The notes under the pieces are model-generated. The model was not told where the DNA came from. It ran no database searches and worked only from the letters and a program-made list of their open reading frames with translations. From Bacillus kwashiorkori (lineage in GTDB: Bacteria; Bacillota; Bacilli; Bacillales; Caldibacillaceae), in contig NZ_CTDX01000016.1 in assembly GCF_001375515.1 (NCBI RefSeq), positions 446,942-470,941 of the forward strand: a stretch of DNA of 24,000 nucleotides, read 5' to 3'. Position 1 is the first letter of the stretch, and each line of letters starts with the position of its first letter. The position numbers and the translations under genes were made by a program. Shown here piece by piece: positions 11,263 to 21,551 of this stretch.

Positions 11263-12144
11263 TTGTCCGATCTATCCTTGTTTATGGAACAGAATTTATC
11301 TAGTTTAAACATGAAACTAAGTGAGTACGTAAACCGTCTCGACGCACCTACCATATTAAAAGATTCAATGGATTATTCTATTCAAGCTGGTGGAAAAAGA
11401 ATCCGTCCCTTATTAATTTTAATGACTTTAGAAGCATTTCAAAAAAATCATGATAATGGACTTCCAGTTGCGTGTGCAGTGGAAATGGTTCATACATATT
11501 CGCTTATTCATGATGATCTTCCAAGTATGGATGATGATGATTTTCGGCGAGGAAAGTTTACGAACCATAGAGTATTTGGTGAAGCAAATGCTATTTTAGC
11601 TGGAGATGCATTATTAACGTATGCATTTCAAATGATCGCAGAATCACCTTCTATTTCCGACAAACATAAAGTTCAATTAATATTTGAACTAGCAAAGGCT
11701 GCTGGTCCAGAAGGTATGGTGGCAGGACAAGTAGCTGATATAGAGGGAGAAAATAAAACACTCTCGATAAAAGAATTAGAATATATTCATGTAAATAAAA
11801 CTGGGAGATTATTAGCTTTTTGTATTAAAGCTGGCGCTATTCTTGCTGACGCGAAAGAGGAAATAATCTCAGCTTTAGAGGAATTCTCATTACATCTTGG
11901 TCTAGCGTTTCAAATTCGAGATGATATATTAGATATTGAAGGCTCATTAGAAACGATTGGGAAACAAGTTGGTAGTGATGAAGGTAAGCAGAAAGCAACA
12001 TATCCTGCCCTTTTAACATTAGCAGGTGCAAAAGAAAAATTAACCGAACATATTAATCGTGCTAAAACTATTTTAGAAAACTTGCCGATTAAAAATAATT
12101 TATTATTGGAAATGACAGAGTTAATCGCGACAAGAAATTCGTAG
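11263..12144 (+). CDS. ispA: Farnesyl diphosphate synthase
   Basis: 293 aa with TTG start 5 nt after GAGGAGGAG. Both aspartate-rich motifs are present (IHDDLPSMDDDDFRRG and FQIRDDILD). Confidence 0.95.
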   Translation: MSDLSLFMEQNLSSLNMKLSEYVNRLDAPTILKDSMDYSIQAGGKRIRPLLILMTLEAFQKNHDNGLPVACAVEMVHTYSLIHDDLPSMDDDDFRRGKFTNHRVFGEANAILAGDALLTYAFQMIAESPSISDKHKVQLIFELAKAAGPEGMVAGQVADIEGENKTLSIKELEYIHVNKTGRLLAFCIKAGAILADAKEEIISALEEFSLHLGLAFQIRDDILDIEGSLETIGKQVGSDEGKQKATYPALLTLAGAKEKLTEHINRAKTILENLPIKNNLLLEMTELIATRNS

Positions 12145-12825: not shown

Positions 12826-12853
12826 ATAATTTTTGCGCGGAAAGAGACATTTT

Positions 12854-13465
12854 ATGAGACAAATGTTAAAAAATTCGTTAAAATGGAGTTTAACAATCGC
12901 CGTTACCACATTTGTGTTAGCGGCTATTTTTTCAATATTCTCCAACTATATTTTAAATGATATTAGTTGGATTGCTGGAATTGGTGTCGTATTAGGCATT
13001 GTGTTAATAGGGATTTTTTTTGATATGATTGGTATTGCTGCTACTGCTGCTGATGAAGTACCGTTTCATGCGATGGCCTCTAATAAAGTGTATGGTGCAA
13101 AACATTCGGTTCGAATTGTTCGCAATGCAGACAAAGTCGCTTCTTTTTGTAATGATGTTATTGGCGATATATCCGGCATCATTAGTGGTACTGCCTCAGC
13201 TATTGTCATTATCCAACTTACAGCTAATTTTTATATAGGTAAAAATAGTTTATTCGAATATATTATTTCTGTTATTTTTACAAGTTTCATTGCAGCATTA
13301 ACAGTTGGCGGCAAAGCATTCGGAAAATCCTTTGCTATTCAATTTTCTAAGCAAATTATTTTACAAGCTGGGAAAGTGTTGCAATTTTTAGAAGAAAAGT
13401 TTCATATCGTAATATTAAAAGAGAAAAAGAAACGTAAAAAAAAGAAAAATCGATTAAGAAAGTGA
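12854..13465 (+). CDS. oapA: OLE-associated membrane protein A candidate (4 TM, polybasic C-terminus)
   Basis: About 203 aa from ATG 12854. Four hydrophobic segments are present, plus acidic motifs (FFDMIGIAATAADEV and NDVIGDISG) and the C-terminal tail KEKKKRKKKKNRLRK. It sits between the ncRNA and dxs. The start could also be 12833 or 12863. Confidence 0.7.
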   Translation: MRQMLKNSLKWSLTIAVTTFVLAAIFSIFSNYILNDISWIAGIGVVLGIVLIGIFFDMIGIAATAADEVPFHAMASNKVYGAKHSVRIVRNADKVASFCNDVIGDISGIISGTASAIVIIQLTANFYIGKNSLFEYIISVIFTSFIAALTVGGKAFGKSFAIQFSKQIILQAGKVLQFLEEKFHIVILKEKKKRKKKKNRLRK

Positions 13466-18612: not shown

Positions 18613-19902
18613 ATGCGATTGGATTTAGATAAAATTAGAAAATTATTAGGGATAATTCTCCTTGTTTCTTTCGTTTATATCGGCTTTTTTTCACCAGTAA
18701 GTAAGTTATTGAAACAACCGACAACGATGACAGTTTTTGAAGGTGCAAATGAAGTAATTCCAACGACAGCAAATGTCCAGGCAATAAAGAATAATGATAA
18801 TATTCACATTGCTTATGATGAGAAAAATGTTTCTTTAACTGCATTAAATAGCGGTGATAGTGAAGTGTTATTAGAACTAGCTGGAATACCGCTAAAGAAA
18901 GTGAAAGTAAATGTATTAAAAGATTTAAGAGTCATTCCTGGCGGTCAATCTATAGGAGTAAAAATTAATACTAAAGGTGTCTTAGTAGTAGGTCATCACC
19001 AGGTGGACACAACTAGTGGGAAAATATCACCTGGGGAAAAAGCTGGTATAAAAGTTGGGGATTTAATCACCGAAATTAATGGAAAACCAATTTTATCTAT
19101 GGGAGAAGTTACTCCTTTCGTACAGCAAGCTGGATCAAGTGGAAAACCATTAAAACTCGTGATTAAACGAAATGAAGAAACGATTAAGACAGAACTTTCT
19201 CCAGAAAAAGATAAAAATGAAGACAAATACAAGTTAGGCTTATATATTCGTGACTCTGCGGCAGGCATTGGTACGTTAACATTTTATGAACCGAATAGTA
19301 AAAATTACGGTGCGTTAGGTCATGTTATTTCTGACATGGATACAAAAATGCCAATCGTAGTGAAAGATGGTTATATCGTTCCGTCTACCGTCACTTCCAT
19401 TAATAAAGGTAGTAACGGAGTACCTGGAGAAAAGCTAGCCCGTTTTTTACCAGAACGTAGTATAGTTGGTAATATTCGAGCTAATAACCAGTTCGGCATA
19501 TTCGGTCAATTAAACAAAAATATAAAGAATGGAATAGCAGATAAACCAATTCCAGTTGCGTTGTCTCATGAAGTGAAAAAAGGACCGGCGAAAATTTTAA
19601 CGGTTGTCGATGATGATAAAGTAGAAGCATTTGACATCGAAATCGTTAACTCTATTCCGCAAAAGTTCCCTGCAACGAAAGGGATGGTAATTAAAATAAC
19701 TGACCCTCGATTATTGGAAAGAACAGGGGGAATTGTTCAAGGAATGAGCGGAAGCCCTATCATCCAAAACGGTAAATTAATTGGGGCTGTCACACATGTT
19801 TTTGTCAATGATCCTACGAGTGGTTACGGTGTTCATATCGAATGGATGCTAAGAGAAGCAAATATAGACATTTATAAAAAGGACTTAAATAATGCAAGTT
19901 AA
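18613..19902 (+). CDS. spoIVB: SpoIVB signalling serine peptidase (PDZ + S55 peptidase)
   Basis: 429 aa with an N-terminal TM and a PDZ-like segment ([16 protein letters not shown]). The S55 catalytic region [11 protein letters not shown] is present. Its position between recN and spo0A matches B. subtilis. Confidence 0.94.
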
Positions 19903-19933
19903 AGTGGGGAAATTTATTTTCCTCACTTTTTTA
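19903..19933 (+). terminator. Rho-independent terminator after spoIVB
   Basis: Stem AGTGGGGA (19903-19910) / TCCTCACT (19920-19927) with one G-T wobble, then TTTTTT. Confidence 0.7.
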
Positions 19934-19935
19934 AT

Positions 19936-20083
19936 GAAAAGCGAAGGCGACTGTTTAGCGGCGTATGGACTGGACCCAAACCGCAGGAGATAAAGGAAAC
20001 ACGATGAGCCCCGCGAATCGATGTTGACTTATCGTACGGAGGTTTGGGGAAGTCCACTAGCCGCTAGGAGCCGCAGCTGGACA
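19936..20083. repeat. Repeat unit 1 (variant A)
   Basis: Self-complementary helices: 19956-19962/20060-20066, 19966-19970/20052-20056, 19975-19982/20041-20048, 19989-19993/20029-20033 and 20002-20005/20017-20020. Confidence 0.85.
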
Positions 20084-20151
20084 TCAAGGTTCGCAGACTA
20101 AGTACGCGGCGTCCTGCCGCAACGTCTGCATGACCAACGTCGTGTTGGCCC
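20084..20151. repeat. Unique GC-rich connector module with nested and adjacent short hairpins
   Basis: GCAGAC (20093-20098) / GTCTGC (20124-20129) encloses GCGGC (20106-20110) / GCCGC (20116-20120). CCAAC (20134-20138) / GTTGG (20144-20148) follows. The module occurs only between units 1 and 2. Confidence 0.6.
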
Positions 20152-20294
20152 AAGCGAAGGCGACTGTACAGCGGCGTACGAACTGGAGCCAAGCTGGCGG
20201 AGATATAGGAAACACGGCGAAGAATGAGCCGATGTTGACTTATCGTACAGAAGCTTGGTGAAGTTCGCTAGCCGCTAGGAGCCGCAGCTAGCCA
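20152..20294. repeat. Repeat unit 2 (variant B)
   Basis: Same architecture as variant A with changed helix sequences: 20179-20183/20263-20267, 20188-20195/20252-20259 and 20215-20218/20228-20231. Confidence 0.85.
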
Positions 20295-20445
20295 GAAAAG
20301 CGAAGGCGACTGTTTAGCGGCGTATGGACTGGACCCAAACCGCAGGAGATAAAGGAAACACGATGAGCCCCGCGAATCGATGTTGACTTATCCTCGTACG
20401 GAGGTTTGGGGAAGTCCACTAGCCGCTAGGAGCCGCATCTAGCCA
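20295..20445. repeat. Repeat unit 3 (variant A)
   Basis: Essentially identical to unit 1 at an offset of 359 nt. Differences are a 3-nt insertion (TTATCctcGTACGG) and three substitutions at the 3' end. Confidence 0.9.
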
Positions 20446-20510
20446 GAAAAGCGAAGGCGACTGTACAGCGGCGTACGAACTGGAGCCAAGCTGGCGGAGA
20501 TAAAGGAAAC
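20446..20510. repeat. Repeat unit 4 (variant B, 5' half only)
   Basis: Matches the unit 2 left arm with one mismatch and stops at GGAAAC, at the base of the apical stem-loop. The right arm is absent. Confidence 0.85.
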
Positions 20511-20667
20511 CGCATTATCTAACAATGTGGGTGTTTAAACTATGGATAATTGGGTAAATACGTATTGACTTCGTCTGGACAAATAATGACAGCAAATCCC
20601 ATCTTATGTCATAAGCATTAATAAATAGTGGAAAGGAAAAGAAAATTAATATTTTTTGTATATTTAT

Positions 20668-20696
20668 AAAGGAATTTAAATATACATGTCGAAAAT
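20668..20696 (+). promoter_or_regulatory. Candidate sigma-H promoter (Ps-like) of spo0A overlapping a Spo0A box
   Basis: AAAGGAATT (20668-20676), 11-nt spacer, GTCGAAA (20688-20694) fits RnAGGAwWW-N11/12-RnnGAAT apart from the final base (A for T). TGTCGAA (20687-20693) is a perfect 0A box (TGNCGAA). Confidence 0.5.
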
Positions 20697-20753
20697 GTTT
20701 AATAGCGTAAATTTTTATTGAAGGAAATTGCGTCAATTGGGGAGGATACTTTT

Positions 20754-21551
20754 GTGAAAAAGATTAAAGTTTGTATCGTTGATGATAATAAAGAATTAAT
20801 TAGCTTGCTGGAAGATTATATAAATGGCCAAGAAGATATGGAAGTAATTGGAAAAGCATATAATGGTCAAGAATGTTTAAAATTATTAGAAACGGTCGAA
20901 CCCGATGTCGTTCTTTTAGATATAATAATGCCTCATCTAGACGGACTGGCAGTATTGGAAAAATTACAAGAAAAGAGTTATTTCCCGAATATCATTATGC
21001 TTACTGCTTTTGGCCAAGAAGATGTAACGAAAAAAGCGGTAGACTTAGGTGCTTCCTATTTTATGTTAAAACCATTTGATATGAATCATTTAACGAATCA
21101 AATACGAAATGTTACTGGAAAGAAATCGAAGTTACCGATTAAACAAACAAATAACAATGAAAATATAAACAAAACCGAAGAACCTGTACATAAGCCAAAA
21201 AACTTAGATGCAAGTATAACAAGTATTATTCATGAAATTGGTGTCCCTGCCCATATTAAAGGGTATTTATATTTACGGGAAGCTATTTCGATGGTATATA
21301 ATGATATTGAATTATTAGGTTCCATTACGAAAGTGTTATATCCTGATATTGCAAAAAAGTTCAATACGACAGCTAGCCGTGTGGAACGAGCCATTCGTCA
21401 TGCTATTGAAGTAGCCTGGAGTCGTGGAAACATTGATTCTATCTCTTCTCTATTTGGCTATACCGTTAGTATGTCAAAGGCAAAACCAACAAATAGTGAG
21501 TTTATCGCAATGGTCGCAGATAAATTACGACTTGAACACCAAGCATCGTAA
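20754..21551 (+). CDS. spo0A: Sporulation master regulator Spo0A
   Basis: GTG 20754 lies 7 nt after GGGGAGGA and gives [15 protein letters not shown], aligned to B. subtilis MEKIKVCVADDNREL. The C-terminal DNA-binding domain is almost identical ([29 protein letters not shown]...[10 protein letters not shown]). Confidence 0.97.

Follow-up and report, generated by a model that had tools for sequence, protein, structure and literature searches.

Mosaic hairpin repeats with a Bacillaceae-1 module in the spoIVB-spo0A spacer of Bacillus kwashiorkori

Between the sporulation genes spoIVB and spo0A, Bacillus kwashiorkori (assembly GCF_001375515.1, contig NZ_CTDX01000016.1) carries a GC-rich block of long hairpin repeats. 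Its position raises the question of whether it is a control part of these genes, a set of structured RNAs or a repeat that settled there. We analyzed the block within a 24,000-nucleotide stretch of the contig (positions 446,942 to 470,941, forward strand), hereafter the window, from whose first letter all positions are counted. An earlier reading of the letters (the original prediction) had described hairpin units in two variants, A and B. It left three options: a structured small RNA family; an element resembling repetitive extragenic palindromes (REPs) and bacterial interspersed mosaic elements (BIMEs), or a MITE (a miniature transposable element with inverted repeats); and an insulator or stabiliser between the two genes. 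Our results suggest that the block is probably a local cluster of a non-autonomous, modular, non-coding, multi-copy interspersed repeat of Bacillaceae, inserted at this site. Other loci compared are cited by L-numbers.

The spacer runs for 851 bp from the spoIVB stop codon (19900-19902) to the likely spo0A start (GTG at 20754), and the block occupies 19937-20510. The GC content of the block is 52-60%, compared with about 36% for the whole window and 24-39% for the local flanks. A 16-mer 5' motif (AAGCGAAGGCGACTGT) occurs four times in it (at 19939, 20152, 20298 and 20449) and nowhere else in the 24 kb (chance, 0.1). Repeat finding, MAFFT alignment and nhmmer bore out the proposed array of units in the order A1, B1, A2 and half-B2, within 1-3 nt of the earlier coordinates. 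The spacer is composed as follows.

19903-19932 (+): intrinsic terminator of spoIVB, stem AGTGGGGAAA / TTTCCTCACT then TTTTTT; read from sequence
19937-20083 (+): hairpin unit A1, full, A subfamily; nhmmer 130 bits, family-model positions 2-146
20082-20148 (+): Bacillaceae-1 RNA motif, RF01690; cmscan 74.6 bits
20152-20294 (+): hairpin unit B1, full, B subfamily; nhmmer 110 bits
20296-20445 (+): hairpin unit A2, full; nhmmer 118 bits
20447-20510 (+): 5' half-unit B2, terminal; nhmmer 43 bits, family-model positions 2-64
20511-20753 (+): AT-rich upstream region of spo0A, 243 bp, with a 0A-box-like TGTCGAA and a ribosome-binding site at 20739-20746; read from sequence

The left boundary of the insertion is marked by the spoIVB terminator, which directly follows the TAA stop codon; it was read by eye from the letters, the consensus scan having left it unlisted. 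Unit A1 terminates in the canonical GCTGGACA, and A2 combines an A interior and a 3-nt insertion with a B-like 3' end (GCATCTAGCCA). Half-unit B2 is cut near the hairpin apex. No partner arm for it was found downstream, and its fold with the 3' flank was no better than shuffles (z -1.4), so we rejected half-B2 plus flank as a terminator. No U-run follows the GCUAGACA in which the units end, and the plus-strand scan lists no terminator among them, which indicates that they are not intrinsic terminators. The largest open reading frame (ORF) in the block encodes 44 aa, lies antisense within unit A, and gave zero matches in a protein search. Promoter prediction found nothing within or ahead of the array. 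One promoter-like site lies in the 3' end of spoIVB just before the terminator (19865-19893, +; TAGACA, 17 nt, AATAAT; 10/12 matches), but sites of this sort are no more numerous here than expected by chance.

The spoIVB-spo0A spacer was then compared among relatives, as had been proposed with the original prediction; the window's SpoIVB matches the B. kwashiorkori entries at 100% identity, and the nearest named relative by this protein is Perspicuibacillus lycopersici (73% identical). This revealed presence and absence, with five empty spacers and one relative with filled ones.

L009: spacer of 254 bp, empty, keeping an equivalent spoIVB terminator
L130: spacer of 204 bp, empty
L131-133: spacers of 172 bp, empty
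L007: spacer of 1565 bp, with 5 full and 2 half units
L008: spacer of 1094 bp, with 2 full and 2 half units; SpoIVB identical to that of L007

The five relatives with empty spacers have SpoIVB proteins about 66-71% identical to that of B. kwashiorkori. Loci L007 and L008, from two samples, belong to a metagenomic relative, P0005 (SpoIVB 70% identical), whose expanded spacer holds homologous units on the opposite strand in two arrays. In B. kwashiorkori, the insertion leaves the 243 bp upstream of spo0A untouched, a length close to that of a complete empty spacer in the relatives. Because this residual region has that length and keeps a 0A-box-like TGTCGAA, we conclude that the block was inserted between the terminator and a regulatory region that is itself intact. 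The array at this locus is specific to the B. kwashiorkori lineage and is not a conserved control part of either gene.

The units of the block belong to a wider repeat family. Each is about 145 nt long and forms one long hairpin of six or seven helices, with conserved ends, 5' (A)GAAAAGCG.AAGCGCC and 3' GGCGC..AGCT(A/G)GACA. Among species-representative genomes, an exact 23-mer of the 5' end was found at six loci, four in Lederbergia graminis and one each in Virgibacillus flavescens and V. necropolis. At about 117 nt, the units of Virgibacillus are shorter; they have the shared ends and a different interior, and form a head-to-tail array directly after a stop codon. A central-motif pattern identified at least 120 metagenome loci, a lower bound for loci picked by requiring that motif. 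An nhmmer model of the family then gave 179 hits among the loci listed, about 90 of them full length. These family counts are drawn from L. graminis, Virgibacillus and metagenomes, with B. kwashiorkori represented by the window array alone. Arrays of units also occur in L005, L007, L008, L015, L028, L036 and L124. The units average 52% GC and reside in host DNA of 34-47% GC (median 38.6%). A unit lies within 150 nt of a contig end in 45 of the 120 metagenome loci listed, the usual sign of a repeat that breaks assemblies. The whole block had no match in plasmids (7.3 Gb) or phages (2.3 Gb) by distant-mode BLASTN, and the central pattern had 0 matches in viral contigs, indicating that the family is no obvious fragment of a plasmid, a phage or an insertion sequence (IS). 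A full-text literature search found no published description of the hairpin units or their conserved strings.

At the locus itself, each full unit (A1, B1, A2) folds as one long imperfect hairpin, as originally proposed. The minimum free energies of the plus-strand RNAs are -64.1, -61.6 and -61.7 kcal/mol for A1, B1 and A2 (z -6.3, -4.9 and -5.2), and 0 of 200 shuffles folded as well; the minus strands are weaker (-55.1, -53.4 and -59.6 kcal/mol). A base-by-base check found all six compensatory changes between A and B, together with a change of C-G to G-T, at the predicted positions. Helix TGGAC/GTCCA (19966-70/20052-56) becomes CGAAC/GTTCG (20179-83/20263-67) by two double changes, helix CCCAAACC/GGTTTGGG (19975-82/20041-48) becomes GCCAAGCT/AGCTTGGT (20188-95/20252-59) by two double changes plus the C-G to G-T, and the apical helix CGAT/ATCG (20002-05/20017-20) becomes CGGC/GCCG (20215-18/20228-31) by two more. 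The 3-nt insertion in A2 (TTATCCTCGTAC vs TTATCGTAC) sits at the edge of the central helix and an internal loop.

The same pattern extends across the family. We aligned 57 non-redundant copies (pairwise less than about 93% identical) and derived their structure with RNAalifold, which gave 40 pairs in seven helices with compensatory double changes at 26 of the 40. Standard pairs filled 94.8% of cells compared with 82.4% in column shuffles, and cells changed on both sides numbered 313 compared with 86. When partners were slid by 1-3 columns, pairing fell to 27-43%. This strong covariation supports the original claim that selection acts on the fold. The claim that a plus-strand RNA is favoured had rested on a single G-T wobble, and here the argument carries over to the whole family: G-U pairs outnumber A-C pairs by 67 to 26 (p 2.5e-5) and by 18 to 7 pair columns, favouring the unit's own strand, and the mean minimum free energy is -60.4 kcal/mol in sense and -48.3 in antisense, with sense better in 57 of 57 copies. 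Across all copies gathered, the central segment GAGATAAAGGAAACAC...GATGTTGACTTATCGTAGG varies hardly or not at all; as GAUAAAGGAAACAC / GAUGUUGACUUAUC, it is constant in the 57-copy alignment and absent from the Virgibacillus variant. These results indicate that the compensatory pattern reflects a constraint on a folded single strand of the unit's own sense, RNA or single-stranded DNA, and that it acts family-wide rather than at this locus.

We next consider where the two variants came from. Identity between A and B falls from 93% in their outer segments to 75% in the middle segment and to 39% at the apex. The apical segment of B is 100% identical to that of the L. graminis copy L001, and the middle and apex of A resemble the metagenome copies L060 and L078 more than they resemble B. 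It follows that the six compensatory differences are inherited and did not originate at this locus. The positions given in the original prediction stand, and an origin of the changes in place does not, since A and B are, by these comparisons, two old subfamilies spread across genera.

Within the array, copies of the same subfamily are much alike: identity is 94% between A1 and A2 and 98%, over 62 nt, between B1 and B2, and the junctions B1-A2 and A2-B2 are identical (CTAGCCAGAAAAGCG). The array may have been built from the two pre-existing subfamilies and then expanded and homogenised by unequal homologous recombination, or gene conversion, inside the conserved outer segments. Unequal recombination would explain the near-identity of A1 with A2 and of B1 with B2, the two identical junctions and the B-like 3' end of A2. 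Truncated copies are common in the family, and complete elements or arrays are often followed by a 5' partial copy, cut after helix 1, 2 or 3 or near the apex. We counted 21 orphan 5' fragments immediately behind a complete element and 5 orphan 3' fragments immediately ahead of one. Examples of 5' partial units are 20447-20510 in the window, 11384-11458 and 12034-12110 in L007, 3294-3355 in L015, 2365-2466 in L016 and 872-943 in L039. The half-units of L007 carry a different, self-complementary segment (GTACGAAGGGGAGACTCCCTCGTAC).

The original prediction could not place the block in a named family. This holds for hairpin units A and B, which had no match in Rfam 15 even at E<=10, but not for the block, which contains a Bacillaceae-1 motif that had been overlooked. 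The 68 nt between A1 and B1 are no spacer: positions 20082-20148 (+) match RF01690 over its full model (1-67/67) with 74.6 bits (gathering score 35) and an E-value of 1e-13. This copy consists of two hairpins, of which the first has the loop CGUCCUG, conforming to RUCCU, and the second a degenerate loop, CGUCGUG (UCGU for UCCU). It takes the place of the usual AT-rich linker and of the GAAA start of unit B1. With no Rfam match for the units at E<=10 and no cassette ORFs, we rejected a self-cleaving ribozyme, a riboswitch and an integron attC site. An Rfam scan of 20 further unit-bearing loci returned only Bacillaceae-1, one transfer-messenger RNA and one T-box.

Bacillaceae-1-like modules were present in 13 of 129 loci, always touching or nested in a hairpin unit, with five more above the Rfam gathering score. 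Their positions differ from locus to locus. The module lies between two units in the window, at the unit apex on the opposite strand in L002, L003 and L006, in the 5' arm on the opposite strand in L082, L040, L076 and L043, in the 5' arm on the same strand in L077 and L037, where it displaces the helix-2 sequence, and in the 3' arm in L037, L035 and L011. In L069 and L011 it stands in place of the whole unit interior, with the outer stem alone left. Coordinates of nested modules are 4385-4591 in L003, 51-306 in L082, 2946-3193 in L037, 151-217 in L069, and 90-156 and 2640-2707 in L011. GGCC always comes next after nested modules, and the unit of L039 retains the second Bacillaceae-1 hairpin only. 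At the junctions, segments seem to have been replaced rather than simply inserted. Among the modules that these mosaic hairpin repeats can swap, Bacillaceae-1 is one.

Previous work has described this motif in other settings. In the supplementary alignment of Weinberg et al. 2010, Bacillaceae-1 lies at the apex of a different long repeated hairpin in B. subtilis and B. licheniformis, with the outer hairpin CAGCGUGUCGACAAACCCU...AAGGGUU...CACGCUGA; in architecture this is the case of L069 and L011, where the motif fills the interior. BSGatlas lists eight matches of the Bacillaceae-1 hairpin in B. subtilis. Weinberg et al. rated it a likely trans-acting RNA, its two RUCCU loops suggesting a dimeric protein, and in the study of Gardner and Eldai, which called the strand uncertain, the CsrA-binding motif was matched by its reverse complement.

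We also examined the genomic surroundings of the copies. Counted with crude ORF calls, 22 units are co-directional with their neighbouring ORFs, 21 are anti-directional, 8 lie between convergent genes and 9 between divergent genes. The 22 to 21 split shows no overall preference, which argues against insertion biased by replication direction. With gene orientation as a proxy for replication direction, we consider a single-strand transposon of the IS200/IS605 type unlikely. Transposase-like families were not enriched within 3 kb of copies, where the recurrent neighbours were only large generic families (ABC transporters, response regulators, kinases). An apparent "Spo0A cluster" beside nine loci was rejected, as these are ordinary response regulators with 28-34% identity.

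The 5' flanks of most copies are unrelated to each other. At 16 of 87 full units, a co-directional long ORF stops within a few nucleotides of the 5' end; a mirror control, made at the 3' end, gave 2 of 87. The TAA or TAG then falls within the flank WTAAG|AAAAGCG, so that these units sit between stop codon and terminator (examples: L120 at 6550, L060 at 9311, L015 at 3662, L057 at 8228 and L005 at 2377). The ORF abutting the unit of L015 encodes a SigG-like sporulation sigma factor. One subfamily has TATAAT-like boxes 7-10 nt ahead of the unit start.

Two further modules flank some units. A conserved tail of about 45 nt (ATTCTCAAAGTCGAAATTTATACTTTCTTATCTTTTAAAAAA) lies 3' of units in L044, L081, L123, L047, L065, L049, L101, L011 and L069 and is absent from the window array. 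Combined with the TGGACA or TAGACA at the unit's end, this tail resembles a sigma-A-like promoter that faces outward (TGGACA, 17-18 nt, TATACT); in L011 and L069 the next element begins about 13 nt past its -10 box. The second module is a perfect DnaA-box-like TTATCCACA followed after 14-16 nt by TTTTATAATTTCCTAAGAAC, found beside units in L045 (both sides), L118, L070, L098, L059, L129, L110, L108, L058 and L114. Where it precedes a unit, the AAAAGCG start falls just after a -10-like TATAAT.

Taken together, we favour an interspersed repeat as the source of the block. The family behaves as a selfish or semi-selfish repeat, occupying scattered intergenic sites in either orientation, forming head-to-tail arrays and exchanging segments. 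Among the options originally proposed, the REP/BIME-like or MITE-like element fits best, except that a classical MITE is not supported, for want of a target-site duplication. Any local effect is probably small: very stable hairpins behind a terminator may at most stop or stabilise read-through transcripts. Several observations weigh against a mobile repeat. Target-site duplications are absent, direct repeats around 55 single copies (offsets 0-6, length 3-9) having the same length distribution as mismatched flanks. Plasmids, phages, viral contigs and the 3 kb around copies yielded neither a mobilising enzyme nor an autonomous parent. We infer mobility from the distribution of copies and from presence or absence in relatives with about 70% identical SpoIVB, with no clean pair of filled and empty sites. 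Some copies have promoter-like sequence directly upstream, or a 3' end that serves as a -35 box, which hints at expression. Finally, a functional RNA would account for the asymmetry between strands and for the conserved central motif no less well than selfish DNA would, although the conservation of that motif is partly circular because the metagenome scan required it, with independent support from B. kwashiorkori, L. graminis and the L007/L008 organism only.

The last observations are what a cellular structured RNA would predict, and we regard this explanation as doubtful but deserving of weight. The units, with or without Bacillaceae-1, would then be genes or modules of an RNA that is possibly protein-titrating (sponge-like) or trans-acting, and tandem arrays and multiple copies would increase the dose of a conserved internal loop that binds protein (GAUAAAGGAAACAC / GAUGUUGACUUAUCGUAGG). 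Extensive covariation (26 of 40 pairs) around an invariant central sequence, the clear preference for one strand, the stop-abutting units (16 of 87, mirror 2 of 87), which would be co-transcribed as 3' untranslated regions, and the subfamily with TATAAT-like boxes all argue for it, as do the trans-acting rating by Weinberg et al. and the CsrA-motif match by Gardner and Eldai. Yet half of the copies run antisense to the genes beside them, and most, whose 5' flanks show no relation to each other, lack a conserved promoter or terminator. Neither presence nor orientation is conserved at the one comparable locus, and mosaics, common truncations and the 45 of 120 listed loci at assembly breaks are equally at odds with it, as is a window array that lies behind a terminator with no promoter predicted inside. 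A tentative and less probable variant makes the units and Bacillaceae-1 expressed single-stranded elements, for example multivalent RNA decoys for a protein that binds RNA, such as CsrA, that multiply through a copied single-stranded intermediate by rolling or template-switching. Such a scheme would explain the sense-strand bias, the mixed head-to-tail arrays, the chimeric modules, the missing target-site duplications and the 5' partial copies.

Double-stranded transposition as classical MITEs, derivatives of IS elements with DDE transposases moved in trans through terminal inverted repeats, is improbable. The units are small, non-coding, multi-copy and intergenic, occur in both orientations, and have imperfect inverted ends (GCGCAAGCGCCC vs reverse complement GCTCCAGCGCCC) that pair as basal helices; the short derivatives of L005 (-40.8 kcal/mol, z -10) and L080 even carry perfect inverted copies of the 5' motif. 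However, the 55 single copies have no target-site duplication, the G-U to A-C asymmetry is not expected of double-stranded transposition, 7.3 Gb of plasmids and 2.3 Gb of phages yielded no IS with related ends, no transposase was found beside any copy, and the Bacillaceae-1 junctions look like segment replacements. We give even less credence to a locus-specific cis element, namely an insulator, terminator booster or mRNA stabiliser for spoIVB or spo0A, the last of the options in the original prediction. Its attraction is that very stable hairpins occupy the exact gap that separates the spoIVB terminator from the spo0A regulatory region and that a second lineage (L007/L008) has an array in the same spacer. 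But the spacers of five relatives, at 172-254 bp, hold no block, the units of the other filled spacer lie on the opposite strand and differ in copy number between strains, the same units lie beside more than 100 unrelated genes, and no U-tract follows them.

An interspersed repeat of this kind resembles BOX, BIME/REP, enterobacterial repetitive intergenic consensus (ERIC) and bcr1 elements in general kind. The bcr1 repeat of the B. cereus group is about 155 bp long, has 5-bp direct repeats, forms a cruciform with two stem-loops and is restricted to that group (PMC3184786; Okstad 2004; Klevan 2007). Its genomic distribution is not conserved, compensatory changes keep its fold at the RNA level, and it is placed in a special class of its own among mobile sequences (PMC3184786). 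As the closest Bacillus analogue, bcr1 shares with our units a similar size, a non-coding and interspersed nature, a non-conserved distribution and compensatory changes. Compared by description, the units differ in having no direct repeats, a single long hairpin, and B. kwashiorkori, Lederbergia and Virgibacillus as hosts. Like BOX and BIME elements, they are modular, vary in number and order, occur in tandem in intergenic regions, have stable predicted RNA structures and are non-autonomous; the BOX elements of Streptococcus pneumoniae and the BIMEs of enterobacteria are unrelated to them in sequence and host.

BIMEs are mosaics of REP units, which are 20-40 nt long, have a GTAG or CGTC head and are tied to REP-associated tyrosine transposases (RAYTs). 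Here, unlike in REPs, the repeating unit is a complete hairpin of about 145 nt with six or seven helices, and only the mosaic and clustered organisation resembles BIMEs. BOX has a fixed A-B(n)-C order, whereas the present arrays end in a 5' partial unit. The RF01690 carriers of B. subtilis and B. licheniformis are likewise long repeated hairpins that hold Bacillaceae-1. The B. subtilis one is probably the "190-bp element repeated ten times" of Kunst et al. 1997. Its outer sequence differs from that of our units, and the Bacillaceae-1 of the window lies between units rather than at an apex. As a working comparison and not a claim of membership, the units also recall the CsrB and RsmZ protein sponges, both being tandem hairpin modules with conserved purine-rich, GGA-containing loops. 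Unlike those RNAs, the units are scattered in both orientations with no single dedicated locus. The hairpin family is a further bacterial interspersed structured repeat, one with no Rfam family; Bacillaceae-1 itself was already known.

Additional hairpins and repeats accompany the units at other loci. Hairpin repeats of other types, with similar ends and unrelated interiors, stand in tandem with units at L003 (3800-4700) and in the flanks of L079, L101, L029 and L060; examples are AAATGCGAAAGGCGCTCGATTATCGGCG...GAGCCGATAGCGCCTTGAGCTAGACA, GAAAAGCGGAACCGGCTTGGTCAGC... and GACTCCTACGGGAGCAAAGGCCTCGATGAGACCCCGCAG. Given these tandem neighbours, the superfamily appears wider than the family model used. 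Short derivatives, in which the 5' motif is combined with its reverse complement (GAAAAGCGAAGGCGACTGTT...AACAGTCGTCTTCGCTTTTC), occur in L005 (1950-2018, -), L080 (on the element's 3' side) and L010. The L005 derivative forms a near-perfect hairpin, and those of L005 and L080 end in CUUUUCUC and look like a terminator at the array end. Between the two arrays of L007 (11790-12030; L008, 11630-11880), the octamer TTTAGCAA recurs about six times, irregularly spaced, in an AT-rich stretch. The window also carries, upstream in this gene row, a full-length ornate large extremophilic (OLE) RNA (RF01071; 12203-12806, +; 465.5 bits, model 1-616), followed by an ORF at 12833-13465. OLE RNA is also present in L007 and L008 (504-506 bits).

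For spo0A biology, the result is mainly negative, as the block is an insertion and not a conserved regulatory part. Beyond this locus, the family of about 145 nt covaries well enough to be fit for RNA and repeat libraries, where its entry would prevent the "discovery" of such repeats as regulators of individual loci, and it would account for breaks in the assemblies of Bacillaceae genomes and metagenomes. The orphan Rfam motif Bacillaceae-1, without known function since 2010, gains a genomic context as an interchangeable module of nested hairpin repeats, and its occurrence on either strand relative to the carrier unit bears on the doubt over its functional strand. If the units do multiply as single-stranded elements, Bacillaceae-1 would be a portable module and not a free-standing small RNA gene. 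The bias to one strand, the lack of target-site duplication and the arrays that end in a 5' partial unit are a misfit with classical MITEs, and they make this family a tractable case for how repeats spread in Firmicutes.

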